Shown: positions 13,806-63,143, numbered from the stretch's first letter. The stretch is 64,000 bases of DNA from Alphaproteobacteria bacterium (GCA_024279115.1 JAJRRW010000121.1:7614-71613), one strand, 5' to 3'. Notes: generated by a model not told the origin, from the sequence alone. Program-made: numbers and translations.

Positions 13806-15355
13806 ATGAGCGAGAACAGCTTCTATGTCACAACGCCCATTTTCTACCCCAACGGGGTGCCTCATATTGGCCACGCCTATACGGCCATCGCGACTGATGT
13901 GCTGGCGCGGTATGCGCGCCTGGATGGCAAAGACGTGTTGTTCGTGACTGGCACGGACGAGCATGGTCAAAAAATGCAGCGCACCGCTGAGGGCGAGGGC
14001 ATATCGCCCATCGAACTGGCAGATAAAAACGCGGCGGTTTTTCGTCATATGGTGGAAGCGCTGAATTGCTCCAATGATGATTTCATCCGCACCACCGAGG
14101 AACGTCACCGTAAAACCTGCCAGGAATTGTGGACCCGCATGCAGGCCAATGGCGATATTTATCTTGATACCTATGGCGGTTGGTATTCGGTGCGTCAGGA
14201 AGCCTATTTTGAAGAAGCAGAGACGGAACTTGGCGACGATGGGGTGCGCCGGGAGCCTCTGGGATCTCCTGTCGAATGGCTGGAGGAGGAAAGCTATTTT
14301 TTCAAGCTGTCCGCCTATGAAGAGCCGCTTTTAAAACATTATAGCGATCACCCCGACTTTATTGGCCCCGATGCGCGGCGCAATGAAGTCACCAGTTTTG
14401 TGAAATCCGGGCTGCGAGATCTTTCCATCTCACGGACCACCTTTGACTGGGGAATACCGGTGCCCGGCGATGATGGCCATGTCATGTATGTGTGGATTGA
14501 TGCCCTCACCAATTATGTCACCGCAACGGGATGGCCCGACACGCACGATCGCAACCACTTCTGGCCGGCAAACCTGCACATGATCGGCAAGGATATTGTG
14601 CGTTTCCATGCCGTCTACTGGCCCGCTTTCTTGATGTCAGCAGACTTGCCGTTACCCGGACGGGTTTTCGCCCATGGTTTCTTGACCAACAAAGGGGAGA
14701 AGATGTCCAAATCGGTGGGCAATGTGGTCGACCCCTTTGCCATGATCGAGCAATACGGCCTTGACCAGATGCGTTATTTTTTCATGCGCGAAGTCCCGTT
14801 TGGCAAGGATGGCAGCTACTCGCACGAGGCCATCGTCAATCGTATCAATGCCGACCTTGCCAATGATCTTGGTAATCTGGCGCAGCGTTCCTTGTCGATG
14901 ATCGCCAAGAACTGTGACGGCCGCATCCCCGAACCAGGGGAGCTTTTGCAACAAGATCTCGATATCATAGCGCAAGGTGATGCGATCTACGCCAAAACAA
15001 GCGCTGCCATGGACCAGCAGGCCATCAACAAGGCACTGGATGCAATTTTTGACGTGGTTGCCAATGCCAATAAATATTTCGCAGGACAAGAACCCTGGGC
15101 CCGCAAAAGGATGACCCCGCCCGTATGGGGACCATTTTGTATGTGACCGCAGAAGTCATTCGCAACGTGTCCATTTTGTGCCAGATGATCATGCCGCACT
15201 CCGCGCAAAAACTGCTTGATCTGCTGGCTGTGCCGCAAAATAAACGCGATTTTTCTTCGCTTGGAGACGTCGCTCGCTTGTCGCCTGGCACTTCGCTCCC
15301 CAAACCCGAAGGGGTGTTTCCGCGCTATATCGAACCGGAGGGAGACGGCTCATGA
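13806..15355 (+). pseudogene. metG: Methionine--tRNA ligase, interrupted as sequenced by a 1-nt frameshift at the A4 run 15105-15108
   Basis: ORF 13806-15146 has the class I HIGH motif (PHIGHAY) and KMSKS. The conserved C-terminal continuation [18 protein letters not shown]...VFPRYIE is in the -1 frame, which is open from 15074 to the stop at 15355. One extra A restores a single ORF. Confidence 0.9.
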
Positions 15356-16161
15356 TGCTAGTAGATACCCATTGTCATCTCGATTTCCCAAAACTTGGCG
15401 ATCAGCTTGCCGAGGTGCTGGCCCGTGCCGAGCAGGCCAATATCAAGCAGATGGTGACGATCTGCACGAAAGTGCGCGAGTTCGACAAAATCGTCAAAAT
15501 TGCAGAAAATCACGACAATATTTTCTGCTCGGTGGGCACTCATCCTCACTATGCGCAGGATGAACATGATATCAGTGTCGAAGAAATTATCGCCCTTTCA
15601 CACCATCCAAAGGTCGTGGCGATTGGCGAGGCGGGACTGGACTATCACTATGACAACAGCCCGCGTGAGCAACAAAAAGCGGTGTTTCGGCGCCATATCG
15701 ACGTGGCGCGCCAGACCGGTCTGCCTCTGGTCATCCATACCCGAGACGCAGATGACGATACCGTCTCTATATTAAAAGAGGAAATGGCCATTGGCACCTT
15801 TCCCGCCCTTATTCATTGTTTTACGGCCTCAAAGCGCCTTGCCGAAGAAGTGCTGGAACTGGGGCTTTATATCTCCATGTCGGGTGTTTTGACCTTCAAA
15901 AACTCACTGGAGCTGCAAGACATCGCCAAAACGCTACCACTGGATCGGTTGTTTGTGGAAACAGACGCCCCCTTTCTTGCCCCCATGCCCCACCGTGGCA
16001 AGACCAACGAACCAGCCTTTACGGTCCATACGGCGCAAAAACTGGCGGATTTACAAGAACGCTCTTTGGCAGAGGTGGCGCACGCCACGACGCAAAACTT
16101 CTATCGACTGTTCGCCAAAGTCCCCAAACTTGCCGATCGCGCTGGAAACAATTGTACATGA
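15352..16161 (+). CDS. tatD: TatD-family metal-dependent hydrolase/DNase
   Basis: DTHCHLDF N-terminus, GEAGLDYHY, IHTRDA and ETDAPFLAP motifs. The start overlaps the metG stop (ATGA). Confidence 0.88.
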   Translation: MMLVDTHCHLDFPKLGDQLAEVLARAEQANIKQMVTICTKVREFDKIVKIAENHDNIFCSVGTHPHYAQDEHDISVEEIIALSHHPKVVAIGEAGLDYHYDNSPREQQKAVFRRHIDVARQTGLPLVIHTRDADDDTVSILKEEMAIGTFPALIHCFTASKRLAEEVLELGLYISMSGVLTFKNSLELQDIAKTLPLDRLFVETDAPFLAPMPHRGKTNEPAFTVHTAQKLADLQERSLAEVAHATTQNFYRLFAKVPKLADRAGNNCT

Positions 16162-16958
16162 GTATGCGCGTCACTATATTGGGTTGCGGAGCCTCTGGCG
16201 GCGTCCCGCGTATTGGCGGCCACTGGGGGAATTGCGACCCGAACAATCCTAAAAACACCCGTCGTCGCTGCTCTATTCTCGTGCAAAAAACCTCCCGTCA
16301 TGGCACCACAACAGTATTGGTCGATACCTCTCCAGACCTTCGCATGCAATTGCTGGATGCTGGCATTGCGCAGGTTGATGGTGTCATCTACACCCATGAG
16401 CACGCCGACCATACCCATGGCATTGATGATTTGCGCCAGGTCGCCTTTAACACCAAAAAACGAACCGATGTCTATATGAGTGCACGGGTGCTGGAGCATC
16501 TTGTGCCCAAATTTTCCTATTGCTTCAAATGCCCCCCCGACAGCTTTTATCCGCCCATTCTCAACCCGTGCGAGATCAAACCCTACACGCCGTTTACCAT
16601 TGATGGTGCAGGGGGCGGCATTGATATTTTGCCCATGAACCAGCATCATGGGTCGATTTTGTCTCTGGGCTTTCGGTTTGGAAATTTTACCTACTCAACG
16701 GACGTACACGCATTTCCAGAGGAAACCGCACGACTGCTGCAGGGTACCAAAATATGGATCATCGATGCTCTGCGTTTCAAGGGACACAAAACTCATTTTG
16801 ATGTGGATACGGCCCTGTCGTGGATCGAACGTATCCAGCCAGAGCGGGCATTTCTAACCAATATGCATCATGATCTGGACTATGACGATCTGAAATCCAA
16901 ACTTCCAGAGCATGTCGAGCCATCATTTGACGGCCTCCAGTTTGATATCAACGCCTGA
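16158..16958 (+). CDS. MBL-fold metallo-hydrolase (PhnP-like)
   Basis: Starts MSMRVTILGCGASGGVPR and has the HxHxDH motif (THEHADHTHG). Its ATG overlaps the tatD stop. The 114-aa N-terminal extension in the ORF track overlaps tatD out of frame and is an artefact. Confidence 0.8.
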   Translation: MSMRVTILGCGASGGVPRIGGHWGNCDPNNPKNTRRRCSILVQKTSRHGTTTVLVDTSPDLRMQLLDAGIAQVDGVIYTHEHADHTHGIDDLRQVAFNTKKRTDVYMSARVLEHLVPKFSYCFKCPPDSFYPPILNPCEIKPYTPFTIDGAGGGIDILPMNQHHGSILSLGFRFGNFTYSTDVHAFPEETARLLQGTKIWIIDALRFKGHKTHFDVDTALSWIERIQPERAFLTNMHHDLDYDDLKSKLPEHVEPSFDGLQFDINA

Positions 16959-17664
16959 ACTTTTCGATCTGCCCGTTTTTCACATATGCGGGCGCGCACA
17001 TCTGCACAAATAAAGGCGCCAGTTCGCGCGGCTCTGCCAATGTCTGCGGATCTTCTCCAGGAAACGCCTTCATCCGCATGGTCGTGCGAATAATACCAGG
17101 GTCCAGCAGATTGGCCCGCACATTGGTTGCGTTGTTTTCTTGCGCATAGGTACGGACCAGAGCTTCAAGGCCCGCCTTGGAGGTGGAATAGGGGCCCCAA
17201 TAGGCCTGATTGTGAGCAGCCGCACCAGAGGTCACAAAAACCGCCCGACCAGCTTTTGATCGCTGTAACAAGGGGTCAAAAATCCGCAACAACCGCCAGT
17301 TGGCCGTGAGATTAAGATCGATCACCTTGCTCCAGTCCTTGGGGCTGACGTGACCTACCGGGGACAAGGGACCAAGAATGGCGGCATTGCCAACCAGAAT
17401 ATCGAGGCGGTCAAAATGTTTGAAAATTTCAGCGCCCAGATCATCAATGCGATCAAGTTCGAGGAGATCGAACGGCACCAGCGTCACTTCGCCGCCAGCA
17501 TCCAGTATTTTTTCTTCCAGCGCCTCCAGCCCACCGGTGGTGCGCGCCAGAGCCACAACATGAGCACCAGCTTTGGCAAGCGCCAGGGCAGCCGCTTCGC
17601 CAATACCTCTGGAGGCTCCCGTCACCAGAGCGACGCGGTTCGACAAGGAGGAGGGGTCGTTCAT
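16948..17664 (-). CDS. SDR-family oxidoreductase
   Basis: TGASRGIG cofactor motif, NAA and YSTSK catalytic motif. Confidence 0.8.
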   Translation of the reverse strand: MNDPSSLSNRVALVTGASRGIGEAAALALAKAGAHVVALARTTGGLEALEEKILDAGGEVTLVPFDLLELDRIDDLGAEIFKHFDRLDILVGNAAILGPLSPVGHVSPKDWSKVIDLNLTANWRLLRIFDPLLQRSKAGRAVFVTSGAAAHNQAYWGPYSTSKAGLEALVRTYAQENNATNVRANLLDPGIIRTTMRMKAFPGEDPQTLAEPRELAPLFVQMCAPAYVKNGQIEKFRR

Positions 17665-17738
17665 ATCATTTACTCTTTCAATTAGATTGACCTGTTATAT
17701 AAATTGCTTGCGATCAATGAAACAAAAAAGGGCACAAC

Positions 17739-17766
17739 AAAAAAGGCAGCCCGAGGGCCGCCTTTT
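17739..17766 (-). terminator. Rho-independent terminator downstream of the TAXI-like gene
   Basis: The minus strand reads GGCGGCCCTCGGGCTGCC, a GC-rich stem with one mismatch, followed by TTTTTTG. Confidence 0.6.
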
Positions 17767-17788
17767 GAGAAAACCATCTACATAAAGT

Positions 17789-18922
17789 TTACTGGTTCAT
17801 TTTTTCTTTGGCCGCTTCACCAAGATCTTTGGCCTTATCCATGGCTTTTCCACCTAGTTCTTTGGCTTTTTCTTTGGCAGTTTCCAGCATTGGTGCAGCC
17901 TTTTCTCCTAATTCACGTGCTTTTTCCTTGGCTTTTTCGAGCATGGGAGCAGCTTTCTCACGGGCTTTTTCAGAGGCCACCATCATTTTATCCACGGCAT
18001 CCGCTGACAGCGACCTGGTCTTTGACCACATTTTTTTGAAAAAGCCCTGTTTTGGCAGCAGTTTCTCGGCAGGAATGTCATTGATCGTACTGATCATGTC
18101 CTTATGATCAAGCTTTTGATCATTGTCGGTCATCAGTTGGGGATTGCCCGTGAAGATCACCATAGGCGTGCAAGCGGTTGTCACTTTGGCGCCCTTTTTC
18201 CAGAACTTGCCATTGCTGACATCTGTTTCCTGCGCAAAATATATTTTCTGATCATCGACCGTCTGGCGTAAAATATTTCGATCAATGACCGGAATAAACA
18301 ATCCTTGTTCCTTGGCAATCAGTTTGAAACGATCATTATCGGGATCGGGAAACTGAACAAACAGGGCAACTGATTTATTGTCACCTGCCAGCGCCTTCTT
18401 CAAGGCTATATCGGTGCTTTCAGCATGCGTTACATCCAGCGCGCGCCCCAGACCATCTGGATCAATTTGCCGAAGATAATCAAATGTCGAGGCACTGCCG
18501 CTGCCCCGTGGCGGCAAGATAAATTTCAATTCACCCGCACGAGCCGCCACATCACCAAAACTCAACAGTTCTTTATTTTTTGTCACCATAAACAGACATT
18601 CACGCGCTATATCGTTGCGAATGACGTGATATGGCTGAGCGGGGTGCTGCTGGGAAACGTTCAAGGCAAAGACATCAAACTGGGCAAAGCCTACATCAGC
18701 AGGGTTTTTGAGAACCTGGTTGATATTTTCATTTGAACCTTGCGAAAGCGTACATTTAAAATTGAATTTCGCTGTGGCAAGCTCTTTGGCCAAGGGTGGA
18801 CAAAAATCGCCATTATAAGCGCCACGCGCGCCACCAGTATGAATTTTACTAGCCTGGGCGACACCTGTTATCGCCAGCGCTAGTCCTGCCGTAGCAAGAA
18901 AGGTTATCGTCGATCTAGACAC
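17789..18922 (-). CDS. TAXI-family (TRAP-associated) periplasmic solute-binding protein homolog with a repeat-rich C-terminal tail
   Basis: Sec signal (ALAITGVAQA|S). TAXI-like blocks include HTGGARGAY, SQGSNENINQVLKNPADVGFAQFDV and LPPRGSGSASTFDYL. The last ~65 aa are Lys/Glu/Ala-rich repeats. No TRAP membrane component is adjacent. Confidence 0.65.
   Translation of the reverse strand: MSRSTITFLATAGLALAITGVAQASKIHTGGARGAYNGDFCPPLAKELATAKFNFKCTLSQGSNENINQVLKNPADVGFAQFDVFALNVSQQHPAQPYHVIRNDIARECLFMVTKNKELLSFGDVAARAGELKFILPPRGSGSASTFDYLRQIDPDGLGRALDVTHAESTDIALKKALAGDNKSVALFVQFPDPDNDRFKLIAKEQGLFIPVIDRNILRQTVDDQKIYFAQETDVSNGKFWKKGAKVTTACTPMVIFTGNPQLMTDNDQKLDHKDMISTINDIPAEKLLPKQGFFKKMWSKTRSLSADAVDKMMVASEKAREKAAPMLEKAKEKARELGEKAAPMLETAKEKAKELGGKAMDKAKDLGEAAKEKMNQ
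17852..17959 (-). repeat. Tandem 54-nt (18-aa) coding repeat: EKAAPMLEKAKEKARELG / EKAAPMLETAKEKAKELG
   Basis: Two adjacent 18-aa units identical at 16 of 18 residues. They are followed by a shorter related unit, GKAMDKAKDLG. Confidence 0.75.
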
Positions 18923-19132
18923 AATTATTCTCCTTATGGTGCACTAAACAAAGCCTGACCTCGTTTTAGCACATGATTTCGGCTCCAGTTTCGCATCTGG
19001 AGATCGGGACGTCATGGAATGGTTATATTTGCCAAATTAGGCAGCATTATTTCCACATCGGATATAGTCTGTATAGATAGAGTCAGGCAGATCATAGACT
19101 ACATGAATATGAAAGACCATGAACAAATTGGT

Positions 19133-20644
19133 CTACGCGCTCTCTTCAACCAGCAATGATAATTGCTTATCAATGGCTTGGCCGGAGCGATCCAGTAATC
19201 TGGTGGGATAATCTCCCGTAAAGCAATGATCAGTGAACTGCGGTGTTTCGTTGTTTCGGCCCTTGAAGCCCATCGCCTTATAGATCCCCTCAATGGATAA
19301 GAAGGCCAAACTGTCGGCACCGATAAAATCATTGATCTCGGCAACTGATCTGCCTGCGGCAATAAGGGAAGATCGCTTGGGTGTGTCGATGCCGTAAAAG
19401 TCAGGATGGGTGATGGGCGGGCTGGAAATACGCATATGCACTTCCTTGGCCCCGGCTTCATACATCATCTTGACGATTTTCATGCTGGTGGTGCCACGTA
19501 CAATGCTGTCATCCACCAGAATGATGCGTTTGCCAGCAATGGAATGGCAGTTGGCGCTATGTTTCAAGCGCACCCCAAGTTCGCGGATTTTCTGGGCCGG
19601 TTCAATAAAAGTGCGCCCCACATAGTGATTGCGAATAATACCAAGTTCAAACGGTATATCTGATTTTTGGGCGTAACCGATTGCTGCGGGCAGACCGCTA
19701 TCTGGAACGGCGATCACCACATCGGCTTCAACACCTGATTCTTTCTCCAGTTCCGCGCCCATTCTTTTACGGACATCATAAACACAATGCCCACCGACGA
19801 TTGAATCCGGGCGCGCAAAGTAAATATATTCAAAAATGCAGGGGCGTGATTTGGTCTTGCCAAAGGGCTTGTAGGATTTAATGCCATCCTTGGTGATAAT
19901 CACAACTTCACCATTTTCGATCTCTCGCACGAATTCCGCGTCAATCATGTTGAGGGCACAGGTTTCTGAGGCCAGCACATAAGAATTTCCCTGCTTGCCA
20001 AGCACTAATGGCCTGATGCCATAGGGGTCACGAGCGCCGATGAGTTTCTTGTTGGTGAGCCCGACAAAGGCGTAGGCTCCCTCAATCTGCCTCAGGGCTT
20101 CTATAAACTTGTCGACAAATTTGCGCTCACGACTACGAGCGACGAGATGCAGCAAAACCTCGGTGTCAGAGGTCGTTTGGCAAATGGCCCCATCCTTGAT
20201 CAGCTCTTCGCGTAATGTAATGGCATTGGTCAAATTGCCATTGTGGCAAATCGCAAAGCCACCTGTGGCAAGGTCAGCATAAAGCGGCTGGGTGTTTTGT
20301 AAAATGGTGTCGCCGGTGGTTGAATAGCGCACATGGCCAATGGCGGTTCTGCCAACCAGTTTTTTTATGACTTTTTCGGAGGTGAAATGATCACCGACCT
20401 TGCCTAGATGTCGCTCGGATATAAATCTATTGCCGTCAAAAGATATAATACCAGCGGCTTCTTGTCCCCGATGCTGCAGGGCATGCAACCCCAAAGTCGT
20501 AAAAGCAGCGGCATCATCGTGATCGAAAATACCAAACACACCGCATTCTTCATGCAGCTTGTCATCATCGCCTAACAGGGATGAGCCGGCTTCAATCACC
20601 ATCGCGGATTGCTTGGCCGCGTTCTTCTCAAAAAGATGTGACAT
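19133..20644 (-). CDS. purF: Amidophosphoribosyltransferase
   Basis: Ntn-type CGVFGIF after a leader peptide. PRTase motif ILVDDSIVRGTT. Confidence 0.93.
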   Translation of the reverse strand: MSHLFEKNAAKQSAMVIEAGSSLLGDDDKLHEECGVFGIFDHDDAAAFTTLGLHALQHRGQEAAGIISFDGNRFISERHLGKVGDHFTSEKVIKKLVGRTAIGHVRYSTTGDTILQNTQPLYADLATGGFAICHNGNLTNAITLREELIKDGAICQTTSDTEVLLHLVARSRERKFVDKFIEALRQIEGAYAFVGLTNKKLIGARDPYGIRPLVLGKQGNSYVLASETCALNMIDAEFVREIENGEVVIITKDGIKSYKPFGKTKSRPCIFEYIYFARPDSIVGGHCVYDVRKRMGAELEKESGVEADVVIAVPDSGLPAAIGYAQKSDIPFELGIIRNHYVGRTFIEPAQKIRELGVRLKHSANCHSIAGKRIILVDDSIVRGTTSMKIVKMMYEAGAKEVHMRISSPPITHPDFYGIDTPKRSSLIAAGRSVAEINDFIGADSLAFLSIEGIYKAMGFKGRNNETPQFTDHCFTGDYPTRLLDRSGQAIDKQLSLLVEESA

Positions 20645-20750
20645 GCAACCATCCTCTGCGTGACCAATGAAGTCGATTTCTTAGCACAGTCCAAGATTTA
20701 AGGCGAGGACGAAAAATCGCGACACTTTAACCCAGGAAGGTCAATTGGTT

Positions 20751-21296
20751 CTATTGCTGCTCTTCCTCGGGCTCACCCTTGCCAAGAATACCCATGATCT
20801 TGACGGCAAATCGGTGTCCGACTTTTTCCAACTTGTCGCTGGTCCATTCAATCGCATCACGTGAATAGGCATCCTCGATAAAATCGGGGCGGCTTTTGTC
20901 ATCGGTAAATTTGATGAAGAACCAGAAAATGATCCCGACCAGGATCATGCCGCGCGCCAATCCAAACAAAAGACCCAAGGTGCGGTCAAGAGCGCCAATA
21001 CTGCTATCAAGAACCCAGTCACCCACCTTGATCGTCAACAGGCTGACAATGATCAAAACAACAAGAAAGACAATACCAGCCGCACCGCCAATAACCGCGA
21101 TGTCAGGCAAACCGTCCGGGGCCAGCTGCTTGATTTCCTCTTGATAGAAGAAATAGGTGATAGCAGCGGCAGCCGCAGCGGCAATCCAGGCGGCAATTGA
21201 CAATAGTTCGCGTGTTAATCCACGTAGCATGGCCAAAAAGCCGGATATCAGCATGACCGCAGCCAAAACCAAATCAAGAACCGTTAATGATGGCAT
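20751..21296 (-). CDS. cvpA: CvpA-family membrane protein (colicin V production protein)
   Basis: Four hydrophobic segments. Conserved position between radA and purF. The start is placed at the MPSLTVLDLVL methionine. Confidence 0.8.
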   Translation of the reverse strand: MPSLTVLDLVLAAVMLISGFLAMLRGLTRELLSIAAWIAAAAAAAITYFFYQEEIKQLAPDGLPDIAVIGGAAGIVFLVVLIIVSLLTIKVGDWVLDSSIGALDRTLGLLFGLARGMILVGIIFWFFIKFTDDKSRPDFIEDAYSRDAIEWTSDKLEKVGHRFAVKIMGILGKGEPEEEQQ

Positions 21297-21387
21297 TCGT
21301 TTCCGAGCCCCTCTTTGCATCGTTCAGCGTTCGTACTGTGTATATATAAAGCCCCTCACATCTCGTAAAGGACATACTATCACAGTG

Positions 21388-22812
21388 TTAATCAACTGTT
21401 TTTGTTTCTTTATGACCCAGTTCCTGGCTTTTTGCGCCCTCGGACCCGAGTATATTTGCTGTTAAAGCACTAAGATGAGGCAGATTTTCGACCAATATCT
21501 TTTTATCAGCCACCTCTCCGTCAACTGGCATCGGCATGGTGGCCGATTTAAACCCCAGCTTGCGGGCTTCTTTTAGTCGTGCGCCCATATGCCCGACATT
21601 ACGGACAGCTCCTGATAGGGATATTTCCCCAAAGAATACACGATCAATTGGCAGCGCGATACCAGATAGCGCGGATATAAGCGCGGCGGCAATGGCCACA
21701 TCGGCAGCCGGTTCCGTAATTCGCAAGCCGCCAGCAACGTTGAGGTAAACATCATGAGCGCCAAAGCGCAAGCCACATCTGGCGCTCAACACCGCGATGA
21801 TCATGGCGAGACGGTTCGAATCGCACCCAACCACGGCGCGTCTGGGCGTGGCAAGAGAAGAGGCGGCGACCAGCGCCTGTATTTCCACAAGCACCGGTCG
21901 CGAGCCTTCAATACCAGCGAATACGGCAGCGCCGGGGCTATCATCGTTGCGATCACCAAGAAACATTTCCGAGGGATTGGCGACCTCGGCCAGTCCCTCA
22001 TTTTTCATCTCGAACACGCCGATTTCATCCGTGGCGCCAAACCGGTTTTTTACAGCCCGTAAAATACGAAACTGGTGTCCGCTGTCGCCTTCAAAATACA
22101 GCACCGTATCAACCATATGTTCGACGACTTTTGGACCAGCGATCTGCCCGTCTTTGGTGACATGGCCAACGATCAACAACGCGGCTCCAGAACGCTTGGC
22201 GTAGCGAACGAGATGCTGAGAACAAGCGCGCACCTGCGAAACTGTGCCAGGGGCGGCGTCAAGACTATCTGACCAGACGGTCTGAATACTATCAATTATG
22301 ACCATGGCCGGGGGATCACCAGCCTCCAGCGTCGATAAAATATTGGCCACATTGGTCTCGGCAGCCAAGCCAACCGGTGCATCCGTAACCTTAAGCCTTT
22401 TAGCCCGCAGACGCACCTGGGCTGTTGCTTCTTCTCCCGAGAAATAAAGAGCGCGATGGCCTTTGTTGGCAAGCACCGCCGCCACCTGCAACAAAAGGGT
22501 AGATTTGCCAATCCCTGGTTCACCGCCCACAAGAATAGCGGAACCTGGCACCAGCCCGCCTCCTGTGACCCGGTCAAATTCAGCAATATCGGTCATTAGC
22601 CGCGGAACATCAGCAACTTCGGTGTCAAGACTTTCAAGCTCCAGCGTCAGGCCCTTGGTTTGCTTTTTTGAGGGACCACCGGCAACACCGCTATTTTTGG
22701 ACACTTGCTCGGCAATGGTGTTCCATTCTCCACAAGCATTACAACGCCCCGCCCACTGGCCGCTGGTGGCACCACAGCTCTGGCAGGCAAAACTGTTTTT
22801 CTGACGAGCCAC
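21388..22812 (-). CDS. radA: DNA repair protein RadA/Sms
   Basis: N-terminal zinc ribbon (CQSCG...CNACGEWN), Walker A GEPGIGKSTLLLQ, KNRFG motif and a Lon-like C-terminal domain. GTG start at 22812. Confidence 0.93.
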   Translation of the reverse strand: MARQKNSFACQSCGATSGQWAGRCNACGEWNTIAEQVSKNSGVAGGPSKKQTKGLTLELESLDTEVADVPRLMTDIAEFDRVTGGGLVPGSAILVGGEPGIGKSTLLLQVAAVLANKGHRALYFSGEEATAQVRLRAKRLKVTDAPVGLAAETNVANILSTLEAGDPPAMVIIDSIQTVWSDSLDAAPGTVSQVRACSQHLVRYAKRSGAALLIVGHVTKDGQIAGPKVVEHMVDTVLYFEGDSGHQFRILRAVKNRFGATDEIGVFEMKNEGLAEVANPSEMFLGDRNDDSPGAAVFAGIEGSRPVLVEIQALVAASSLATPRRAVVGCDSNRLAMIIAVLSARCGLRFGAHDVYLNVAGGLRITEPAADVAIAAALISALSGIALPIDRVFFGEISLSGAVRNVGHMGARLKEARKLGFKSATMPMPVDGEVADKKILVENLPHLSALTANILGSEGAKSQELGHKETKTVD

Positions 22813-23951
22813 TATTTTGCACCTATATATTGGCGTTCATAGCGGGTGCCAAGCGAGGTTAATATCTCATAGCTGATGGTGCCCGCAATGTTTGCCAGAT
22901 CATCGATGGATACATGGTGACCCAGCAGCTCGACCGGCGCTCCCACTACGAGCACCTCATCCGGAATATCGGTGACATCAATGGTGATGAGATCCATGGA
23001 CACTCGGCCAGCAAGAGGGGCCTCATGATTGCCGATATAGGCGTTCGCACCTTTTTGATCAGTGGTAGAGCCAAGCGCCCTGTGATAGCCATCGGCATAG
23101 CCAACCGGCAAGGTGGCAAGGCGGGTCTGGCGTTTCGTGACATAGGCGCCGCCATAGCCAACGGGGTCGCCTTTATCGACCGTCCGCAATTGAACAATAT
23201 GGGTGATCAGGGAGACCACGGGGCGCATCGCACTTGCCGCGTCCTTATTGGGTTGCCCACCATAAAGCGCGATCCCGGGTCGCACCAGATCAAGCGCATA
23301 GCCGGGTCCCAGAAAAATACCAGCTGAATTGGCCAGCGAGGAGGGAGTGGATGGAAAGTCCAATAGAAATCCCGACAATGTCTCAAGCTGTTTTTGATTG
23401 CTCGGGTGGGCTGGTTCGTCCGCGCAGGCCAAATGGCTCATGACGAGATCGATTTCAATATCTTTGAGGAGGGTATCTTTGTCAGCGACAAGCCCTTTCG
23501 TCTCGTCAGCATCAAGCCCGAGACGGTTCATTCCCGTGTCCAGATGCAAGGCGACTGGATGACGGCAATCCAGCAAAGTACAAAAGGCCGCCCAGTGCTC
23601 CAGCATTGTCAATGATCCCAGTACCGGCGTCAGCCCATGTTCAATAAAGATGGAGCCCGATCCATTGAACACCCCGTCCAATATGTAGATTTTGATATCG
23701 GAATATCATTCACGCAGGGCAATGCCTTCTTGAAGCGTGGCCACGAAAAACGTGCGGCAACCAAGATCATAGAGGACAGGCACAATATGTGCCGCTCCAA
23801 GGCCATAGGCGTCCGCCTTGACCACGGCGGCACATTGCGCCCCCAAAGCCAGTTCTCGCAATTGCGCATAATTTTGCCCAATCGCTGAAAGATTAATCGT
23901 CAGCAGGGCCGGCGATCCAGACGCCATGTCAGGTATAGAATTCAATGACAT
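22812..23951 (-). pseudogene. alr: Alanine racemase interrupted by an in-frame TGA at 23706-23708
   Basis: The N-terminal ORF (23951-23709) has the PLP-lysine motif AVVKADAYGLG and ends ...QEGIALRE*. The same frame continues YSDIKIYILDGVF... into ORF 23681-22812, which carries HLDTGMNRLG, VGYGG and GRVSMD. Confidence 0.85.
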
Positions 23952-24085
23952 ATATATTCAGCCTGTCTCAAAAAAAACCGTATCATCTAGAATATCATCC
24001 CCGTTTGCGCGGGGATGACATTGATGTTTATCGCACCGATGCTGAAAATTTGAAAGGCATGTTGGTCCGGGATTGTTCGTCGCGA

Positions 24086-32680: not shown

Positions 32681-34051
32681 ATGACTGATCATTCAAACAA
32701 TGGAACACCGCCAGACAATCCTCCTGGCCCTCCACTGCAACAGCACGACTGGCAAGCAGCCCCGCATCAACAGACGCATGATCCACACTATCACAGTCCT
32801 CCAGAGCCACAGCATTTTGAACCTGTGATTGCCAAAGCGGTGCAGCCGCAGGAGTTTTTGAAAACCAGAAAAAAAACCAGTCGCACCATCAAATTGATGC
32901 AGCTGATGATGAGCTTGACCTTCTTTGCCGCTATTGGCATTGCTGGCTTTGTGATGTTTACGCGTTTGCAAGTCGATAAGCCGGGGCCTTTGACCAAACA
33001 AGTGGTGTTTGAAGTCGGCAAAGGCCAGGGACTTAGCATGATCTCGTCGCGCTTGCACAAAAACGGCATTATCAGCGATCGGCGACTCTTTGCGTTGCAC
33101 GCCATGGCCAGCAAATCGGCCAAGAAGCTGAAAGCTGGAAAATACGCCATCCCGCAAGCCGCCAGCATGCAAGATGTGCTCAATATTCTGGTCAAAGGCA
33201 AAGCCATTTTTTATAAGGTGACATTGCCCGAAGGCTGGACCAGCGAGCAGATTGTCAATGCGCTGAGAGCCCACCCGTAATTGGCTGGTAGTATCGATGC
33301 CATTCCACCAGAAGGCAGCCTGATGCCAGATACGTTTCAGTTTTCCGAAGGTGATAACCGCCGCGAACTGCTGGCCAAGATGGCAGCGGCGCAAGAGAAA
33401 TATCTCCAGAAACTATGGTCGAACCGCCAACCGAATCTACCGTTAAAAACTCCAATGGAGGCGCTCATTCTGGCTTCCATCGTCGAAAAGGAAACCGGGC
33501 AGGCCGATGAACGCAAACGCGTTGCCGGGGTCTTTGTCAATCGCTTGCGCATCGGCATGAAATTGCAGTCAGACCCCACCATTATATATGGGCTGGTTGG
33601 CGGCAAGGGCAAGTTGGGGCATCCATTGCGGCGCAGCGAGATGGCCAAGCAAACTGGTTACAATACCTACCAGATCAACGGACTGCCACCGACCCCTATT
33701 GCGAACCCGGGTCGCAAAGCGATCGAGGCCGTGTTGAACCCTGCTGATACCAAAGATCTGTATTTTGTTGCCGATGGTACCGGTGGGCATGCCTTTGCCC
33801 CAACGCTAAAAGGCCATAATGATAATGTCCGAAAATGGCGTAAAATCGAAGCAAAGCGCCGCGCCGAGAAAAAGCGCAAGGAAGTAGAACAAGCACGCCT
33901 TGCCGCTCTAGCGCAAAAACAAAAACCCGCTGACAAAGAGATGGCAAAAAACATTCCTGGAATAACCGTGAGCGATCAAATATCGGCACCAGCCAAAAGT
34001 GCCAACGGCTGGGGCAATGACATACCGCTGCCGACCCGCAAGCCTCGTTAA
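32681..34051 (+). pseudogene. mltG: Endolytic murein transglycosylase MltG (YceG family) interrupted by an in-frame TAA at 33278-33280
   Basis: The N-terminal ORF (TM anchor plus the first YceG block LPEGWTSEQI) ends ...ALRAHP*. The same frame continues LAGSIDAIPPEGSLMPDTFQF...ASIVEKET...YNTYQINGLPPTPIANPG. Confidence 0.85.
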
Positions 34052-36556: not shown

Positions 36557-36559
36557 CCC

Positions 36560-55371: not shown

Positions 55372-55577
55372 CGTGGCTCCATCTAGATGCCGGAAACGAG
55401 AGGCGATTATCAACAAGAGTGACGGGCCTGCCGCTCGCAAACTGTATCCCGCTTGCAACAAAAATCATCCTGAACTTTTATATTGTCCTGAATGGCACAG
55501 ACAATCAACAATATTGTGACATTTATGAGACTAATTAATATCTGTGAAGAACTTGCTGCATGCGCTTGCCTGCCTCT

Positions 55578-57023: not shown

Positions 57024-57032
57024 TTAATTGAC

Positions 57033-58190
57033 CTATCCTTTTTCAAGCACTTGCGAGGGCGGCTTTTTCTTCGATTTGCGTTCTGGTTTTTGATGCGGCA
57101 ACAAGAGTTTGAATATGGAACGCTCACCAATGCGTTCATATTCAATGATGCCGCCATGATCCTTGGTGGTCTTGGCAACCAATGCCAGCCCCAGCCCCGT
57201 CCCGCTGGCTTTGGTGGTGACGAAGGGGTCAAACAAAAAGGACCGGATATCATCTGGAACCCCTGGCCCATTGTCTTCAATGGTGATCTGCAATGGCAGG
57301 TTGGTCTTGGTGCGTGAGCCAGGAACCGTAAAACTTACGCCAGGACGATAAGAGGTGGTCACCCAGATTTTGGCATGTGTGCGTGAATCAGAGACCGCCT
57401 CGGCGGCATTTTTTACCAGATTGAGAAACACCTGCACCAATAAATCGCGACTTCCCAACAGCTTAGGCAATGAGGGGTCATAATTCTCGATCAGTTCAAT
57501 ATTCTTTGCAAATCCGTTATTGGCCACTTGCAGCACATGCCCCAGCACCTCATGAATATTGATCATCTTGTGATCAGCAAGATTATTGTTGCCAAATATT
57601 TCCATGCGGCCAACGAGCCGGGAGATCCGATCGGTTTCATCGACGATCAAGGTGGTGAGAGGGCGATCTTCTTGCTCAATGGAACTTTCCAGAAGCTGGG
57701 CGGCTCCTCTTATGCCCGACAGCGGGTTGCGAATTTCATGAGCCAGCATGGAGGCCAGGCCTGTCACAGAGCGTGCTGCGCCGCGGTGGGCAAGTTGCCG
57801 CTCAATTTTTTGCGCGATGGTGCGCGGCTGCATCACCACAATCACGGTCTCGTCATCAAGAGAGAGCGGGGTCACCTGCAAATCCATCAGCTCATTGGCC
57901 TTTTGTCTGATCCAGCCAATTTCAACATTATATTCGTTGATGCCGCTATTGCCCCGTTGCACCTGATTGACAAGCGAAAGTACGGGGCTGTCAAAATGGA
58001 ATAATTCCTCAAGTACCATGCGCAAAAGCGTTGAGCTGCTGGTGTTGAAATAGAGTTCGGCGCGCGAATTTACATATTCGATGCGATTATGCCGCCCCAC
58101 CGCCAGAATAATCTGCGGCAAGGCGTGCAGCAATTGAACCTGTAGCTTTGAGGAGACATCCTGAACTATTTTACATTTCTTTTGGGTCAT
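57033..58190 (-). CDS. ntrB: Nitrogen regulation sensor kinase NtrB
   Basis: PAS domain, H-box HEIRNPLSGIRGAAQLL, and N/G boxes. Confidence 0.88.
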   Translation of the reverse strand: MTQKKCKIVQDVSSKLQVQLLHALPQIILAVGRHNRIEYVNSRAELYFNTSSSTLLRMVLEELFHFDSPVLSLVNQVQRGNSGINEYNVEIGWIRQKANELMDLQVTPLSLDDETVIVVMQPRTIAQKIERQLAHRGAARSVTGLASMLAHEIRNPLSGIRGAAQLLESSIEQEDRPLTTLIVDETDRISRLVGRMEIFGNNNLADHKMINIHEVLGHVLQVANNGFAKNIELIENYDPSLPKLLGSRDLLVQVFLNLVKNAAEAVSDSRTHAKIWVTTSYRPGVSFTVPGSRTKTNLPLQITIEDNGPGVPDDIRSFLFDPFVTTKASGTGLGLALVAKTTKDHGGIIEYERIGERSIFKLLLPHQKPERKSKKKPPSQVLEKG

Positions 58191-59185
58191 GCGGCGAGCT
58201 CACGATCCCCCTCAATAGAGGCAAACATTTCGTTCAGTGCCTTGATGACATTGACTGGCTGCTCTTCGCGGCACAGCCTGGCTCTCCAGGTCAATGCATC
58301 ACTCCGGCGCTTGAACAGATCATCGATATACCAGCCCAGATGCTTGCGGGCATTGCGCAAACCAAGTTCAACACCATAAAAGCTCAACATATCCTCATAA
58401 TGCTCTGCAATGATGGCCTGCTTGACGGCAAGTGTTGGTGCTGCCGGACTTGCCCCTGTTGCGAGGCGCGCGCCAAACTCCCCGACAATCCACGGCCGCC
58501 CCTGTGCGCCGCGTCCAATCATCACTCCCGACGCTGTTGACTGTGCCAGACAGGTCTCGAGGGCTGAAAAATCGATAATATCGCCATTGGCAATGACCGG
58601 AACACGAACCGCCTTCACCACATCAGATATGGCCAGCCAGTCCGCCTGGCCCTTGTAAAACTGATTGCGGGTACGCCCATGGACCGTTAACATCTGAACC
58701 CCGGCCTGCTCGGCCCGTATGGCAATATCGGCAGCATTGAGAAGATGTTCGTCCCAGCCAAGGCGCATTTTAAGCGAAACCGGCAGATTAACGGCCCCCA
58801 CCACACTGTCTATGATGGAAAGCGCCAGATCAGGCTCCTTCATAAGCGCTGAACCCGCCAGCCCCTTGGTGACCTTGCGCGCCGGGCAACCCATATTAAT
58901 ATCAATCATATCGGCACCAAGATCTGCGGCAACCCTGGCTGCTTCACCGGTTTCATGGGGGCAGCGGCCCGATATCTGGATCACATAGGGGGTGATTTCT
59001 GGCGCCCCCATGACCCGCTTCAAGGTCTGCTTGTGTGCACCCGCCAGCATTTTACTGGCCACCATCTCGGCGACCACCAACCCCGCTCCCAACCGATGCG
59101 CAATGCGCCGGAATGGCAGGTCTGTTATGCCAGACATGGGGGCCAGCAGGACCCTGTTTCTTAACTCGATCATAGGTCTCGTCAA
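58187..59185 (-). CDS. dusB: tRNA-dihydrouridine synthase B (NifR3)
   Basis: LAPMSGITDLPFR, INMGCPA and HGRT motifs. The stop overlaps the ntrB start. Confidence 0.9.
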   Translation of the reverse strand: MTRPMIELRNRVLLAPMSGITDLPFRRIAHRLGAGLVVAEMVASKMLAGAHKQTLKRVMGAPEITPYVIQISGRCPHETGEAARVAADLGADMIDINMGCPARKVTKGLAGSALMKEPDLALSIIDSVVGAVNLPVSLKMRLGWDEHLLNAADIAIRAEQAGVQMLTVHGRTRNQFYKGQADWLAISDVVKAVRVPVIANGDIIDFSALETCLAQSTASGVMIGRGAQGRPWIVGEFGARLATGASPAAPTLAVKQAIIAEHYEDMLSFYGVELGLRNARKHLGWYIDDLFKRRSDALTWRARLCREEQPVNVIKALNEMFASIEGDRELAA

Positions 59186-59353
59186 TCAGGTAGTATGCAT
59201 AAAAACTGTGCAGGTTATTTGAGCTGCTCAATCTTTAAGCAAAACATATGGAAAATGCAAATATTGACAGGACGATGCGACAAAACGTTCTTGGAATAAT
59301 CTCACCATCCCCCTATCCTGCCCGTTCTTGTCATCTGATCTGGAGAGCCGTAA

Positions 59354-60547
59354 ATGCCCAAAACCATCGTTCTTATAGTTGCTGCTGGTAAAGGCGTGCG
59401 GGCTGGTGGCGATCTTCCCAAGCAATATGCCAGGCTTGGGGGGCGTATGGTGCTGTCGACAACCATTGATGCTTTTATGGACCATCCACTGATAACAAAG
59501 ATTGCGACCGTCATCAGCCCCGGGGACATGGAGTTGTACCAGGAGGCAAGCAATCAATTCGGCGACAGGCTGCTGCCCCCCATCACGGGCGGAAAAACCC
59601 GCCAGGAAAGCGTTTATAACGGCTTGCAAGCCCTTAAAGCCCATGCCCCCGACCTTGTTCTCATCCATGATGCTGCAAGACCTTTTGTCGATGCTTTACT
59701 GATTGGCCGCGTTGTTCATGGGCTCAACACTCACGATGCTGTTTTACCAACGATCCCGATCAATGATACCATCAAGCAGGTGCATGGGGGGCAGGTGACA
59801 AAAACCGTTGATCGCTCGAAGCTATTTGCAGCCCAGACCCCGCAAGGCTTTAAATTCCCGCTTATTCTGGGGCTGCACGAACAAGCCGCAAATGACAAAA
59901 CCTGCCGCTTTACTGATGATGTGTCGATTGCAGAAATAGCGGGTATTGACGTTCATTGCGTCGAGGGTAGCTTTGACAATCAAAAACTGACGACAAGGAA
60001 TGATATGAAAATGGCCGAACTTGGGCTTGGCGCTCAGACCAGCTATGAAACCCGGGTCGGATCAGGCTTTGATGTTCACCGCTTCGAACCCGGGGACCGC
60101 GTGATATTGTGCGGCGTCAAAATCCCTTTCGACAAGCAATTGCAAGGTCATTCCGACGCCGATGTCGCCATGCACGCCCTCACCGATGCCCTCTATGGAA
60201 CCATCGCTGAAGGTGATATTGGCTCTCACTTCCCCCCCAATCAGGCACAATGGCAAGGAGCGGCCTCCAGCACTTTTTTGCGCCATGCCGTTGGGTTGGT
60301 GCGCGAGCGCGGCGGCAAATTGGTCAATGTCGATGTTACCATTATATGCGAGCGGCCCAGGATCGGCCCTCATCGAGACGCCATGCGCACGGAACTCGCG
60401 CGCCTATTGGATACCGATGTCTCACGCATCGCCATCAAGGCAACCACCACGGAGCAGCTTGGCTTTACCGGCCGTAATGAAGGCATTGCCGCACAGGCAA
60501 TCGCCACCATCTCACTACCTGACATTGGGGAGGAAAAAGATGTTTAG
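59354..60547 (+). CDS. ispDF: Bifunctional 2-C-methyl-D-erythritol 4-phosphate cytidylyltransferase / MEcPP synthase
   Basis: N-terminal IspD (VAAGKG.R) fused to C-terminal IspF (GSGFDVHRF...GHSDADV.MHAL). Confidence 0.92.
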   Translation: MPKTIVLIVAAGKGVRAGGDLPKQYARLGGRMVLSTTIDAFMDHPLITKIATVISPGDMELYQEASNQFGDRLLPPITGGKTRQESVYNGLQALKAHAPDLVLIHDAARPFVDALLIGRVVHGLNTHDAVLPTIPINDTIKQVHGGQVTKTVDRSKLFAAQTPQGFKFPLILGLHEQAANDKTCRFTDDVSIAEIAGIDVHCVEGSFDNQKLTTRNDMKMAELGLGAQTSYETRVGSGFDVHRFEPGDRVILCGVKIPFDKQLQGHSDADVAMHALTDALYGTIAEGDIGSHFPPNQAQWQGAASSTFLRHAVGLVRERGGKLVNVDVTIICERPRIGPHRDAMRTELARLLDTDVSRIAIKATTTEQLGFTGRNEGIAAQAIATISLPDIGEEKDV

Positions 60548-61058
60548 CCAACAACTGGTTGAGGAAATCGCCCTGTTATCGAAACTGTGCCGCAGTAAAA
60601 AACTGATGATCGCCAGCGCCGAATCCTGTACCGGCGGGCTTATCTCGGCGCTATTCACCGAGATTGCGGGATCATCAGATGTGTTTGAGCGTGGGTTTGT
60701 GACCTATTCCAATGAGGCCAAAACAGAGCTGTTGGGCGTGCCTGTGGAGCTTATCGAGCAATGGGGCGCCGTTAGCCCTCAGGTGGCGGCGGCAATGGCC
60801 AGTGGCGCGCTTACCCATTCTCATGCGGACCTCTCCATCTCGGTGACGGGCATCGCTGGTCCAGGCGGTGGTTCGGTTGAAAAGCCGGTGGGCCTTGTTT
60901 GTCTGGCGGCGGCTCGAAAAAATGGTCTGGTAATTGGCAAAACCCGCAAATTTGGAGATATTGGCCGCGCGAACATCCGCAGCGCAACCATAGGAGCTGC
61001 CATCGAATTGCTCAATAGCTCCATTGAAGCCGAAGACAGCTATGAAGCCTTGCCATAA
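60540..61058 (+). CDS. pncC: CinA C-terminal-domain protein / NMN amidohydrolase PncC
   Basis: ASAESCTGGL, FERGFVTYSNEAK and TGIAGPGGG motifs. Its ATG overlaps the ispDF stop region. The longer ORF in the track is an out-of-frame artefact over ispF. Confidence 0.85.
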   Translation: MFSQQLVEEIALLSKLCRSKKLMIASAESCTGGLISALFTEIAGSSDVFERGFVTYSNEAKTELLGVPVELIEQWGAVSPQVAAAMASGALTHSHADLSISVTGIAGPGGGSVEKPVGLVCLAAARKNGLVIGKTRKFGDIGRANIRSATIGAAIELLNSSIEAEDSYEALP

Positions 61059-61495
61059 ACCTCCTCAGCCCGCGCCACGAAGGCATCTGAAAATTTGTGA
61101 AACGCATAGTCAAACATGGAGCCCATCAAAAGCTGCAAGGGGCGCGACTTGAACTCGTAATCAATAAAAAACTCGACTTCGCAACTGTTCGCCGAGACCT
61201 CCTTGATGGTCCAGCGATTATCAAGATGATGAAAAGGTCCGGTGATGCTCTCCACAAATACCCGGTATTTTTGCCGATCCAGAACAACCCGGCTAGAGTA
61301 GGTTTCTCGAACCACTTTATAAGCCACTGTCATATCGGCAATGAGAATATCTTTGCCGCGACGCTGCTCACGGCTTTTCACGATAAGCGCCTCGCAGAGC
61401 GGTAAATATTGCGGATATTGCTCCACATCTGCAATTATCTTGTACATATTCAAAGCGCTATGAGGCACTGATCTGGTGTCAATAAAGCTCGGCAT
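61040..61495 (-). CDS. SRPBCC-family (RatA/Coq10-like) polyketide-cyclase-fold protein
   Basis: 151 aa with Y..I.DVE.YP.YLP.C N-terminus. Conserved position downstream of lipA. Confidence 0.75.
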   Translation of the reverse strand: MPSFIDTRSVPHSALNMYKIIADVEQYPQYLPLCEALIVKSREQRRGKDILIADMTVAYKVVRETYSSRVVLDRQKYRVFVESITGPFHHLDNRWTIKEVSANSCEVEFFIDYEFKSRPLQLLMGSMFDYAFHKFSDAFVARAEEVYGKAS

Positions 61496-61497
61496 CG

Positions 61498-62448
61498 CTA
61501 TGTCCTGCGACCATCTCTGGCAGCTTTGAGTTGCGCAAAATCCTCGTCGGCATGATAGGAAGATCGCGTCAAAGGGCTGGCTGATACCAATAAAAATCCC
61601 TTTGAAAGCGCGTGGCGTTTATAGGCCGCAAATTCGTCTGGCGTGACAAAGCTTTTGACTTGCGCATGTTTTCTGGTTGGCTGCAAATATTGGCCAATGG
61701 TCAAGAAGTCCACATTGGCCGAGCGCAGATCATCCATTAGTTGCAGCACTTCATTGCGCGTCTCCCCAAGCCCCACCATGATGCCCGACTTGGTGAACAG
61801 GCGCGGATCGCGCTCCTTGACCTTTTGCAACAGGCGCAAGGAATGGAAATAACGAGCGCCGGGCCGGATGTCGAGATAGTTTGAGGGCACGGTTTCCAGA
61901 TTGTGATTAAACACATCAGGGCGCGCCTTGATGACCAGATCTTCCGCGCCGTTCTTTTTGAGAAAATCGGGGGTCAGCACCTCAATGGTGGTCTGGGGCG
62001 TACTGGCCCTGATCGCCTCAATCGTTTGTGCCATATGAGCGGCGCCGCCATCGTCCAGATCATCGCGGTCAACAGAGGTGATAACCACATGCCGCAAACC
62101 CAGTTTTTGCACAGCATTGGCGACATTTTGCGGCTCATGGGGATCAAGAGCGGACGGCTTGCCGGTGCTGATATTGCAAAAGGCGCAGGCTCTGGTGCAG
62201 ATTTCTCCCATGATCATCATGGTGGCGTGGCGCTTGTCCCAGCACTCCCCGACATTTGGACAGGCCGCTTCTTCACAAACCGTCGCCAGGCCATTGGCCT
62301 TGATGATCTCGCGGGTTTCTTTGTAAACTTTTGAGCCGGGCGCTTTCACCCTGATCCATTTTGGCTTGCGCAAGATGGGCGTATCGGGCTTGTGGGCCTT
62401 TTCAGGGTGCCGCACGCGTTCGGCATTTACGTCAAAAATAATGGCCAT
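61498..62448 (-). CDS. lipA: Lipoyl synthase
   Basis: Auxiliary cluster [12 protein letters not shown] and radical-SAM CTRACAFC motifs. The start is placed at MAIIFD. The ORF is open up to 62496. Confidence 0.93.
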
Positions 62449-62452
62449 AATC

Positions 62453-63143
62453 TCAGGTTTCTTCCTCAATTTTATCCGGAAGAATTGTTTCACCATTGAT
62501 TACGGCTTTAGAAATTTGCTGATTTGTAAGGTTGAGCACCCCACGAAGATCAGCTCCCTCCAATATTGTTCCTGAGAGGTTGGCATTTTTCATATTCGCT
62601 CCCCGAAAATCTGCATATGAAAAATCTGCTCCCGACAAGTTCGCATCTTCCAAGTTTGTATTCCTAAGACTTGTCCGACGCAAAATGTATCGTGCAAATC
62701 AAGTTTTGGATAAGACCGATTTTGATTTTTTACCGTATTTGCACTCATGTTTTCACCTTCAATCTACTTTCGATGGTTTCCATGATTTCCTGAATATCAA
62801 TAGGAGGCTCCTTGTCTGAATAGTCCGTCTTATGCAATCTCAAATAGACCGCCAATAACTCAAATACAGGATCAGAAAGGTCAGGAAAATCATTTCCAAT
62901 TTGCCTAAGAGTATATATGGCTCCAAGGCGAACTTCCAGCTTTTCATCTCCAAGCTGACCTACAGCTCGATTGAATAATTCAGCGACATGGTCGCGCCGG
63001 GACAGCTCTGCCTGCTCTAATGAAGCATCTGCTTGAGTATTTGCAGCAACAACCCTGTGATATGCGAGGTATATTCCAAATCCAGCGGCACCTGCCAGGC
63101 CAAGGTTTCTAATGACCTCTGAAACCCCTACGAACCACTCCAT
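62453..63143 (-). pseudogene. Membrane-anchored pentapeptide-repeat protein, apparently split by two 1-nt frameshifts
   Basis: ORF 63143-62745 carries a TM helix plus the helical linker VRLGAIYTLRQIGNDFPDL...IDIQEIMETI. ORF 62683-62453 is pure pentapeptide repeat (TSLRN TNLED ANLSG ADFSY ADFRG ANMKN ANLSG TILEG ADLRG). A bridging frame reads MSANTVKNQNRSYPKLDLHDTF. Adding one base to the T4 run at 62750-62753 and one to the A4 run at 62682-62685 joins all three frames in repeat register. Confidence 0.55.

Follow-up and report, generated by a model that had tools for sequence, protein, structure and literature searches.

Four interrupted genes in a compact region

The window, the whole 64,000-nucleotide (nt) stretch of DNA analysed here, has a coding density of 91%, and four of its approximately 58 genes are interrupted: metG, alr, mltG and a pentapeptide-repeat gene. 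The confirmed lesions comprise two homopolymer deletions and two nonsense codons, one in each gene with no secondary ones, and the frame past each lesion is wholly open up to the native stop. Gene overlaps and spacing around the lesions are normal, as an earlier note on this DNA had described, and no insertion sequences, swollen intergenic regions or lost operon structure were found in the window. All four genes are intact in the related genomes with which they were compared (L002–L004 and L058–L061). No other broken gene was found in the window by tblastn against relatives (14–41 kb and 57–64 kb), by NCBIfam profile coverage (1–14 kb and 41–50 kb) or, from trkA to ntrB (49.9–58.2 kb), by ORF length only. 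The host is an uncultured marine, Hyphomicrobiales-like alphaproteobacterium whose relatives are deep-sea metagenome bins; a megablast search with 20 kb of the sequence gave no match in any complete E. coli genome. Rfam and tRNA scans of the window gave a sole match, a tRNA-Ser at 9383–9472.

The metG gene (13806–15355, plus strand) encodes a methionine-tRNA ligase of the short, 516-aa type, an enzyme that is normally essential and encoded by a single-copy gene. Three codons past the conserved ‘EPW’, a single-base deletion in an A4 run (15105–15108, plus strand) shifts the frame, which then runs to a premature stop at 15144–15146 and leaves a truncated product of 446 aa. The remainder of the gene lies in another frame and extends to the native TGA at 15353–15355, which overlaps the start of tatD. 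The window reads CGCAAAAGG at this site, versus CGCAAAAAGG, with an A5 run, in the independent contig L001, and relatives carry AGAAAA or AAGAAA. L001 is 99.93% identical to the window over 6,036 bp, and its metG is intact at 516 aa with a 4-bp overlap with tatD; a near-identical natural allele of the gene is therefore whole, and the change from A5 to A4 accounts for the disruption that the earlier note had reported. Of the four lesions, only this one meets a direct contradiction in an independent, near-identical contig. The shift removes the last approximately 80 residues of the anticodon-binding domain, a loss that, judging by present knowledge of MetRS, would inactivate the enzyme.

Two further genes are interrupted by in-frame stops, again as first reported. 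The alanine racemase gene alr (22812–23951, minus strand; 379 codons) contains a TGA at 23706–23708 on the same strand that divides it into 81 + 1 + 297 codons; its relatives are 378–379 aa long. The stop falls on a variable residue, which is L, S, H, I or V in relatives and Leu, Leu, Ser, Leu and His in the closest homologues, from which TTA to TGA would be the most parsimonious change. A miscall at a methylation motif was also considered, in which an original TCA would give GAATCA with a GANTC site; Leu prevails among the closest homologues, which makes TTA the more parsimonious original and leaves the miscall unsupported. The mltG gene (32681–34051, plus strand; 456 codons), which encodes a YceG-family endolytic transglycosylase, carries a TAA at 33278–33280 on the plus strand. 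In three relatives the codon is CAA or CAG (Gln), so the lesion is a C-to-T change.

The pentapeptide-repeat gene (62453–62748, minus strand; 98 aa) is one base short, at 296 nt instead of 297. Its sole real frameshift is at a T4 run on the gene strand (62682–62685, minus strand) that was probably T5 originally: the window has ACATTTTGCG, versus ACTTTTTTGCG in relatives, which read ACTTTTTTG at the run itself. With one T restored, the gene encodes a protein of 98 aa, which aligns with that of relatives, likewise 98 aa, and has a PF00805 match at 1.5e-20. Its neighbour (62745–63143, minus strand) is an intact 132-aa gene whose product lacks a Pfam match and carries a predicted membrane helix at its N terminus; the terminal TGA of this gene shares bases with the ATG start of the pentapeptide gene, as ATGA at 62748–62745. 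L058 and L059 likewise carry a 132-aa gene followed by a 98-aa gene, joined by a 4-bp ATGA overlap; stand-alone homologues of approximately 130 aa number more than 100, and forms in which the two proteins are fused are found only among distant homologues (≤53% identity).

The earlier note had counted five lesions, three of them like losses of a single base from a homopolymer, with the pentapeptide gene hit twice. Four of the five, and two of the three losses (in metG and the pentapeptide gene), are present in the sequence. The fifth, at the A4 run at 62750–62753, is the native ATGA overlap and not a deletion, and a split of the pentapeptide gene at that point is rejected on the two-gene layout in L058 and L059 and the abundance of stand-alone homologues. 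A/T runs of at least five bases make up 2.2% of the window and both deletions lie inside such runs, so their placement is non-random.

These sites might be thought to mark programmed recoding, through ribosomal frameshifting at the A/T runs or through read-through or reassignment of TGA and TAA. The short homopolymers at the two shift sites would suit such a reading, and nothing more does. The two sites, CGC AAA AGG and ACA TTT TGC, are not slippery heptamers of the form X XXY YYZ; ordinary genes in the window end in TAG (24 of 57), TGA (18 of 57) and TAA (15 of 57); and the residues at the stop positions in relatives are Gln or variable (Leu, Ser, His, Ile, Val), not Trp or Sec. The lesions are missing from all relatives, and that of metG also from the near-identical contig. 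Recoding is contradicted by this lack of conservation, and we consider its chances negligible.

Private differences from near-identical contigs

Three near-identical contigs, independently assembled from two other runs, are available for comparison with the window: L001 and L069 (SRR32233993) and L065 (SRR32233990). Together they cover 11,328 bp of the window, with an identity of 99.8–99.9%, and the window differs from them by 11 substitutions (at 13661, 14007, 16122, 29846, 30078, 47522, 47978, 48452, 49317, 49517 and 49684) and one deletion, which is the metG frameshift. Another contig of the same clade, L062, is only 78–83% identical to the window.

Ten of the substitutions are in coding sequence, where seven are non-synonymous and three synonymous. 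In holB, the substitution at 13661 (plus strand) puts Q338 into the NLDR motif of the window, where L001 and 54 of 61 homologues share the motif's L and no homologue carries Q. In metG, the substitution at 14007 (plus strand) gives P68, where L001 and four relatives have T. Two C-to-T changes lie in fabG (29846 and 30078, plus strand), at positions where L065 and 11 of 11 relatives have C; the first replaces Ala with Val in the TGxxxGIG nucleotide-binding motif and the second is synonymous. Six differences from L069 (47522–49684, minus strand) fall in trkH, hflX and an intergenic region. Three of them produce L45P, F101V and G456R in TrkH, for which 12–13 of 13 homologues share the residue of L069, and the others are a synonymous change in trkH (49317), P30 versus H of L069 in HflX (47522) and the intergenic change (47978).

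These private changes are one-sided and selection-blind. With outgroups, seven substitutions could be polarised (HolB L338Q, MetRS T68P, the Ala-to-Val and synonymous changes in fabG, and TrkH L45P, F101V and G456R), and in all seven the window has the derived state and the Logan contig the ancestral one, which has a probability of approximately 0.008 if real divergence were shared equally between two lineages. Strongly conserved residues are replaced by six of the seven non-synonymous changes. The 7:3 ratio of non-synonymous to synonymous changes fits an omega of 1 (P = 0.79) and would be unlikely at 0.1 (P = 0.002), an omega of 0.3 is not rejected (P = 0.14), and dN/dS is inflated between very close real strains.

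Ordinary strain polymorphism, with the metG shift alone an error and the alr, mltG and pentapeptide lesions a few real, tolerated, strain-specific pseudogenes, is an alternative reading. Divergence of 0.1–0.2% is normal between co-occurring strains; many bacteria can dispense with alr, mltG and the pentapeptide gene, a paralogue of alr being common and neither mltG nor pentapeptide proteins being essential in model organisms. Nor are these three lesions contradicted by any independent near-identical sequence: a homologue search with alr gave nothing above 78% identity except the window’s own fragment, exact patterns from around the alr and mltG stops had 0 matches in JGI metagenomes, and homologue search, JGI metagenome patterns and protein look-ups found no near-identical sequence over any of the three. 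However, polymorphism should split about equally between lineages and be mostly synonymous or conservative, whereas here 7 of 7 changes are on the side of the window and 6 of 7 non-synonymous ones fall at strongly conserved residues, and the number of nonsense codons already matches an unselected substitution rate (see below). We regard this explanation as decidedly unlikely.

The 12 known or inferred substitutions comprise five C-to-T, four T-to-G, two T-to-C and one T-to-A. A single Illumina error motif, GGT to GGG, was considered as the source of the T-to-G changes and dropped, as only one of the four sites fits by context.

A probable consensus error load

The lesions are part of the public record. 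Truncated products of metG (446 aa), mltG (199 aa) and alr (81 aa and 264 aa) can be found in the public protein collection, with a single 78,301-bp NCBI contig as their common origin, which places the lesions in the assembly as deposited. Deliberate or planted mutations, one of the alternatives raised in the earlier note, are thereby excluded. Exact-protein look-ups of ordinary window genes (dnaB, lipA, the 132-aa protein, yicC, an SRPBCC gene, gmk, cvpA and rpsR) gave no matches, as would be expected if approximately half of the proteins carry private amino-acid changes; wrong choices of start codon could explain some of these failures.

Our comparison gives a substitution rate of 0.97 per kb (approximately 1 per kb). 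Applied to the 58.2 kb of coding sequence, and given that 3.5% of random substitutions produce a stop, this rate predicts 1.96 nonsense codons in the window, and two are observed. Because the observed count equals the unselected-rate prediction, the two nonsense codons, which according to the earlier note homopolymer undercalling does not explain, need no separate explanation and are as the artefact model predicts. The indel count fits loosely: one deletion in 11.3 kb implies approximately five coding indels, and two are seen (P(≤2) = 0.11). Homopolymer undercalling, the artefact first proposed, agrees with the position of both deletions in A/T runs, but with 11 substitutions to one indel it would be a minor defect.

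The lesions are therefore best explained, in our view very probably, as consensus errors of a low-accuracy public assembly, dominated by substitutions, and not as gene decay. The consensus would carry approximately one wrong base per kb, mostly substitutions, together with a few deletions of one base from runs of A5 or T5; the source could be, for example, noisy reads or low coverage. Such errors would ignore selection and fall at random, so that approximately 70% would alter an amino acid, often an invariant one, a small fraction would create a stop codon and every coding indel would shift the frame. metG, alr, mltG and the pentapeptide gene would then be the visible tip of the error load, and all four genes are almost certainly intact in the living organism.

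Of the earlier alternatives, a low-accuracy assembly is thus the favoured one, and a mutator or decaying lineage is less supported. The latter would require real biology, either a hypermutator (for example, through a defect in mismatch repair or mutT) or relaxed selection in a host-restricted or bottlenecked population, with unselected mutations and early pseudogenes. A very recent lineage of this kind would look much the same: its private changes would be one-sided and selection-blind, and its lesions would be single, with an open downstream frame. Homopolymer deletions are typical of mismatch-repair defects, and A:T to C:G changes, a class enriched in mutT mutators, make up 4 of the 12 substitutions when the inferred alr change is counted. 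The genes mutS, mutL and mutT lie outside the window.

The size and placement of the load nevertheless speak against such a lineage. Four broken genes in 58 extrapolate to approximately 7% of all genes; metG is not only broken but also carries T68P; and, within 488 residues, TrkH is altered at three conserved positions, radically at two. Such a load would probably not leave a population consensus viable. The near-identical populations of the two other runs lack all 12 changes, the spectrum is mixed and not the single class of a defined mutator, and the accompanying insertion sequences, enlarged intergenic regions or operon loss are absent. We therefore consider a hypermutator or relaxed selection an unlikely cause. 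Its fullest form appears very unlikely: the contig would be a faithful record of a real deep-sea population, Hyphomicrobiales-like and within approximately 0.1% of a healthy sister, which had newly become hypermutator or lost effective selection and in which mutations, those in essential genes included, were being fixed at the neutral rate.

If the lesions are consensus errors, their value is practical and not biological. Every gene call from the assembly would be suspect: at such an error rate, approximately half of its proteins would carry a false amino-acid change, and the approximately 7% of genes extrapolated above may look like pseudogenes. The earlier warning about how other annotations of this genome should be read thus holds for its protein sequences and its pseudogene calls alike, and false truncated proteins already sit in public protein collections. 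The comparison also provides a cheap test, in which a suspect contig is set against near-identical contigs of independent runs and the differences are examined for being one-sided and selection-blind.

Relation to known systems

Host-restricted or bottlenecked bacteria undergoing gene decay, such as Sodalis glossinidius, Salmonella Typhi and Mycobacterium leprae, likewise have conserved genes with a single frameshift or nonsense codon and a recognisable remainder. The window differs from them in that an essential gene, for an aminoacyl-tRNA synthetase, is not spared, the lesions are not common to relatives, and there is no insertion-sequence expansion, intergenic swelling or other accompanying sign of decay; near-identical populations are free of the changes, and missense changes at invariant residues occur at the neutral rate. 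Mismatch-repair and mutT mutators share with the window the deletions in homopolymer runs and a surplus of private point mutations, A:T to C:G among them, whereas the mixed spectrum and the extrapolated load of approximately one change per kb, far above that of viable natural mutators relative to their nearest relatives, set the window apart.

The closest likeness is to the consensus errors of metagenome assemblies with low coverage or noisy reads, in which indels that break ORFs are a known problem of long reads. As in the window, these show isolated homopolymer deletions and premature stops in syntenic, tightly packed core genes, and their truncated ORFs spread into public protein collections. 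The window differs in that substitutions outnumber indels by approximately 11 to 1, making the classic homopolymer-indel signature a minor one. An extreme form of assembly error is seen in the same clade, in L062 (‘ctg83958_4x_l’), with approximately ten fragmented genes in 20 kb.

Gene content and interrupted genes

The window has a GC content of approximately 51%, shows no similarity to E. coli and carries 58 protein genes and one tRNA-Ser. The genes present and their order are as in a core region of Alphaproteobacteria: nadABC, tmk-holB-metG-tatD, purF-cvpA-radA-alr-dnaB, rplI, rpsR-rpsF, fabD-fabG-acpP-fabF-mltG, yicC-gmk, rsmA-pdxA-surA-lptD, lptFG, pepA, hflX-hfq, trkHA, ntrXYCB-dusB, ispDF, and lipA to lpdA. 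The tRNA-Ser (anticodon TGA; 9383–9472, minus strand) sits within an otherwise gene-poor gap at 8.9–9.8 kb and is the sole RNA family match across the window in Rfam and tRNA scans. The nearest species-level genomes are uncultured ‘Alphaproteobacteria/Hyphomicrobiales’ bins (DNA identity approximately 81%, DnaB 97%); the ‘Dive100’ bin names also appear in work on hydrothermal chimneys of the Southwest Indian Ridge (PMC9769843).

Four genes are interrupted, two by a homopolymer deletion and two by a nonsense codon, each gene bearing a single lesion with an open frame downstream. The metG gene, which we take to be essential and single-copy in this genome, loses its frame at an A4 run (15105–15108) just past the conserved EPW. 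One in-frame TGA (23708–23706, minus strand) divides alr into 81 upstream and 297 downstream codons, with relatives’ Alr proteins being 378–379 aa long; the aligned residue varies among close homologues (L, L, S, L, H, I, V). In mltG, one in-frame TAA (33278–33280) occupies a position that is CAA or CAG in three relatives. A single base is missing from the pentapeptide gene between lpdA and lipA (62748..62453, minus strand), at a T4 run (62685–62682, gene strand) that is longer in relatives, and restoring one T yields a 98-aa protein that is colinear with the relatives’ protein and clearly matches PF00805. No further broken genes were found in the window by tblastn against relatives and NCBIfam profile coverage, or by ORF length only from trkA to ntrB. 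Programmed recoding at these sites is contradicted by their lack of conservation and by all three stop codons being in normal use.

Organization of the pentapeptide locus

The earlier note counted five lesions, and the four described here hold; the fifth, a second pentapeptide frameshift, is instead a native ATGA overlap (62748–62745) between the pentapeptide gene and an intact 132-aa ORF. The contigs of the closest relatives with the locus, L058 and L059, have the same arrangement of lpdA, the 132-aa gene, the 98-aa pentapeptide gene with a 4-bp overlap, and then lipA (gene pair at 62453–63143, minus strand, in the window; 2246–2937 in L058; 3058–3749 in L059). When the ‘repaired’ 230-aa fusion was used as a query, more than 100 stand-alone homologues of approximately 130 aa from public data matched, covering only its N-terminal 55%. 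Fused proteins with both parts in one chain were few and distant (P0003, P0004, P0012, P0047, P0094 and P0107 from the public collection; 187–243 aa). A membrane helix is predicted in the 132-aa protein, which matches no Pfam family. In sequence, the two genes look like a fission/fusion pair, a pattern which suggests that their products function together. The longest lipA ORF (61498–62496; 332 aa, ATG at 62496) and the end of the pentapeptide gene overlap; the start in relatives, and in the public gene call for the contig, is the ATG at 62448 (316 aa).

Comparison with near-identical contigs

Two other runs yielded three Logan contigs near-identical to the window. They cover 11,328 bp of it, over which the window differs from them by 11 substitutions and one deletion: three substitutions and the deletion against L001 (SRR32233993; 6,036 bp), two substitutions against L065 (SRR32233990; 2,075 bp) and six against L069 (SRR32233993; 3,217 bp). 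L001, an independent assembly 99.93% identical to the window, has A5 at the metG site and encodes an intact 516-aa MetRS with a stop overlapping the tatD start, making metG the only lesion directly contradicted by a near-identical contig. Near-identical sequence over the alr, mltG and pentapeptide lesions was not found by an Alr homologue search, exact-pattern metagenome scans at the alr and mltG stops, or protein look-ups.

Wherever outgroups existed, the window’s base is derived and that of the Logan contig ancestral (7/7; p ~0.008 under symmetric divergence), a count that covers 7 of the 11 substitutions and leaves out those at 16122, 47522, 47978 and 49317. Of the seven polarized changes, six replace an amino acid at a strongly conserved position. 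MetRS T68P is window-derived with four relatives as outgroup, and the sites of an Ala-to-Val change within the FabG TGxxxGIG motif and of one synonymous C-to-T change are both C in 11/11 relatives. At TrkH L45P, F101V and G456R, the L069 residue is kept in 12–13 of 13 homologues; at HolB L338Q, within the NLDR motif, 54/61 homologues have L and none Q. Ten substitutions are coding, and their 7:3 ratio of non-synonymous to synonymous changes fits an absence of selection and would be improbable with normal purifying selection. Normal polymorphism with a few tolerated pseudogenes, which leaves this one-sided, conserved-site pattern unexplained, is very unlikely.

The spectrum of the 11 private substitutions (13661–49684) together with the inferred alr change, leaving out the mltG C-to-T nonsense change, is mixed: five C:G to T:A, four A:T to C:G (including the inferred alr TTA-to-TGA), two A:T to G:C and one A:T to T:A. 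The high A:T to C:G share, unusual for natural mutation, may reflect a platform-specific error mode. No consistent sequence motif was seen at the window-specific substitution sites.

Origin of the lesions

The lesions are, in our view, probably consensus errors in a deposited contig of low accuracy; low read coverage, noisy reads or inadequate polishing would be candidate causes. A real load would sit poorly with viability, and the window shows no signs of long-term decay, with a coding density of 91%, gene overlaps kept and no insertion sequences. The alternative of a genuine, very recent hypermutator or relaxed-selection lineage has a slim chance of being correct. It would imply a population with approximately 7% of its genes broken, including metG, with three replacements at conserved positions of TrkH (two of them radical) and altered FabG and HolB motifs, merely 0.1–0.2% from sister populations that have none of these changes; the viability of such a population is hard to reconcile with this load.

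Consensus error also accommodates the stops, which had been held to lie beyond a homopolymer artefact. Random substitutions in the window’s own genes yield a stop codon in 3.5% of cases, so that a rate of 0.97 substitutions per kb, applied to 58.2 kb of coding DNA, predicts 1.96 nonsense codons. Two are observed, so the alr and mltG stops match what a substitution-dominated error process would give. The homopolymer undercalling proposed previously fits both deletions, which fall in former A5/T5 runs, with A/T runs of that length or longer accounting for just 2.2% of the sequence, but indels are a minor class beside substitutions. Deliberate mutation, also raised previously, is set aside since the truncated products are already public: MetRS (446 aa), an MltG fragment (199 aa) and Alr fragments (81 and 264 aa) are in the public protein collection, as are the intact 132-aa, TatD, LipA, DnaB and TrkH proteins, all assigned to one 78,301-bp NCBI contig.

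A contig from a related species (ENA ERZ25073254, ctg83958_4x_l; 78–83% identity), labelled 4x, has approximately ten core genes in fragments across 20 kb at this locus, including rplI, rpsR, rpsF, fabD, fabG, mltG and yicC. Compared with the window, it is a far more extreme frameshift-ridden assembly from the same clade.
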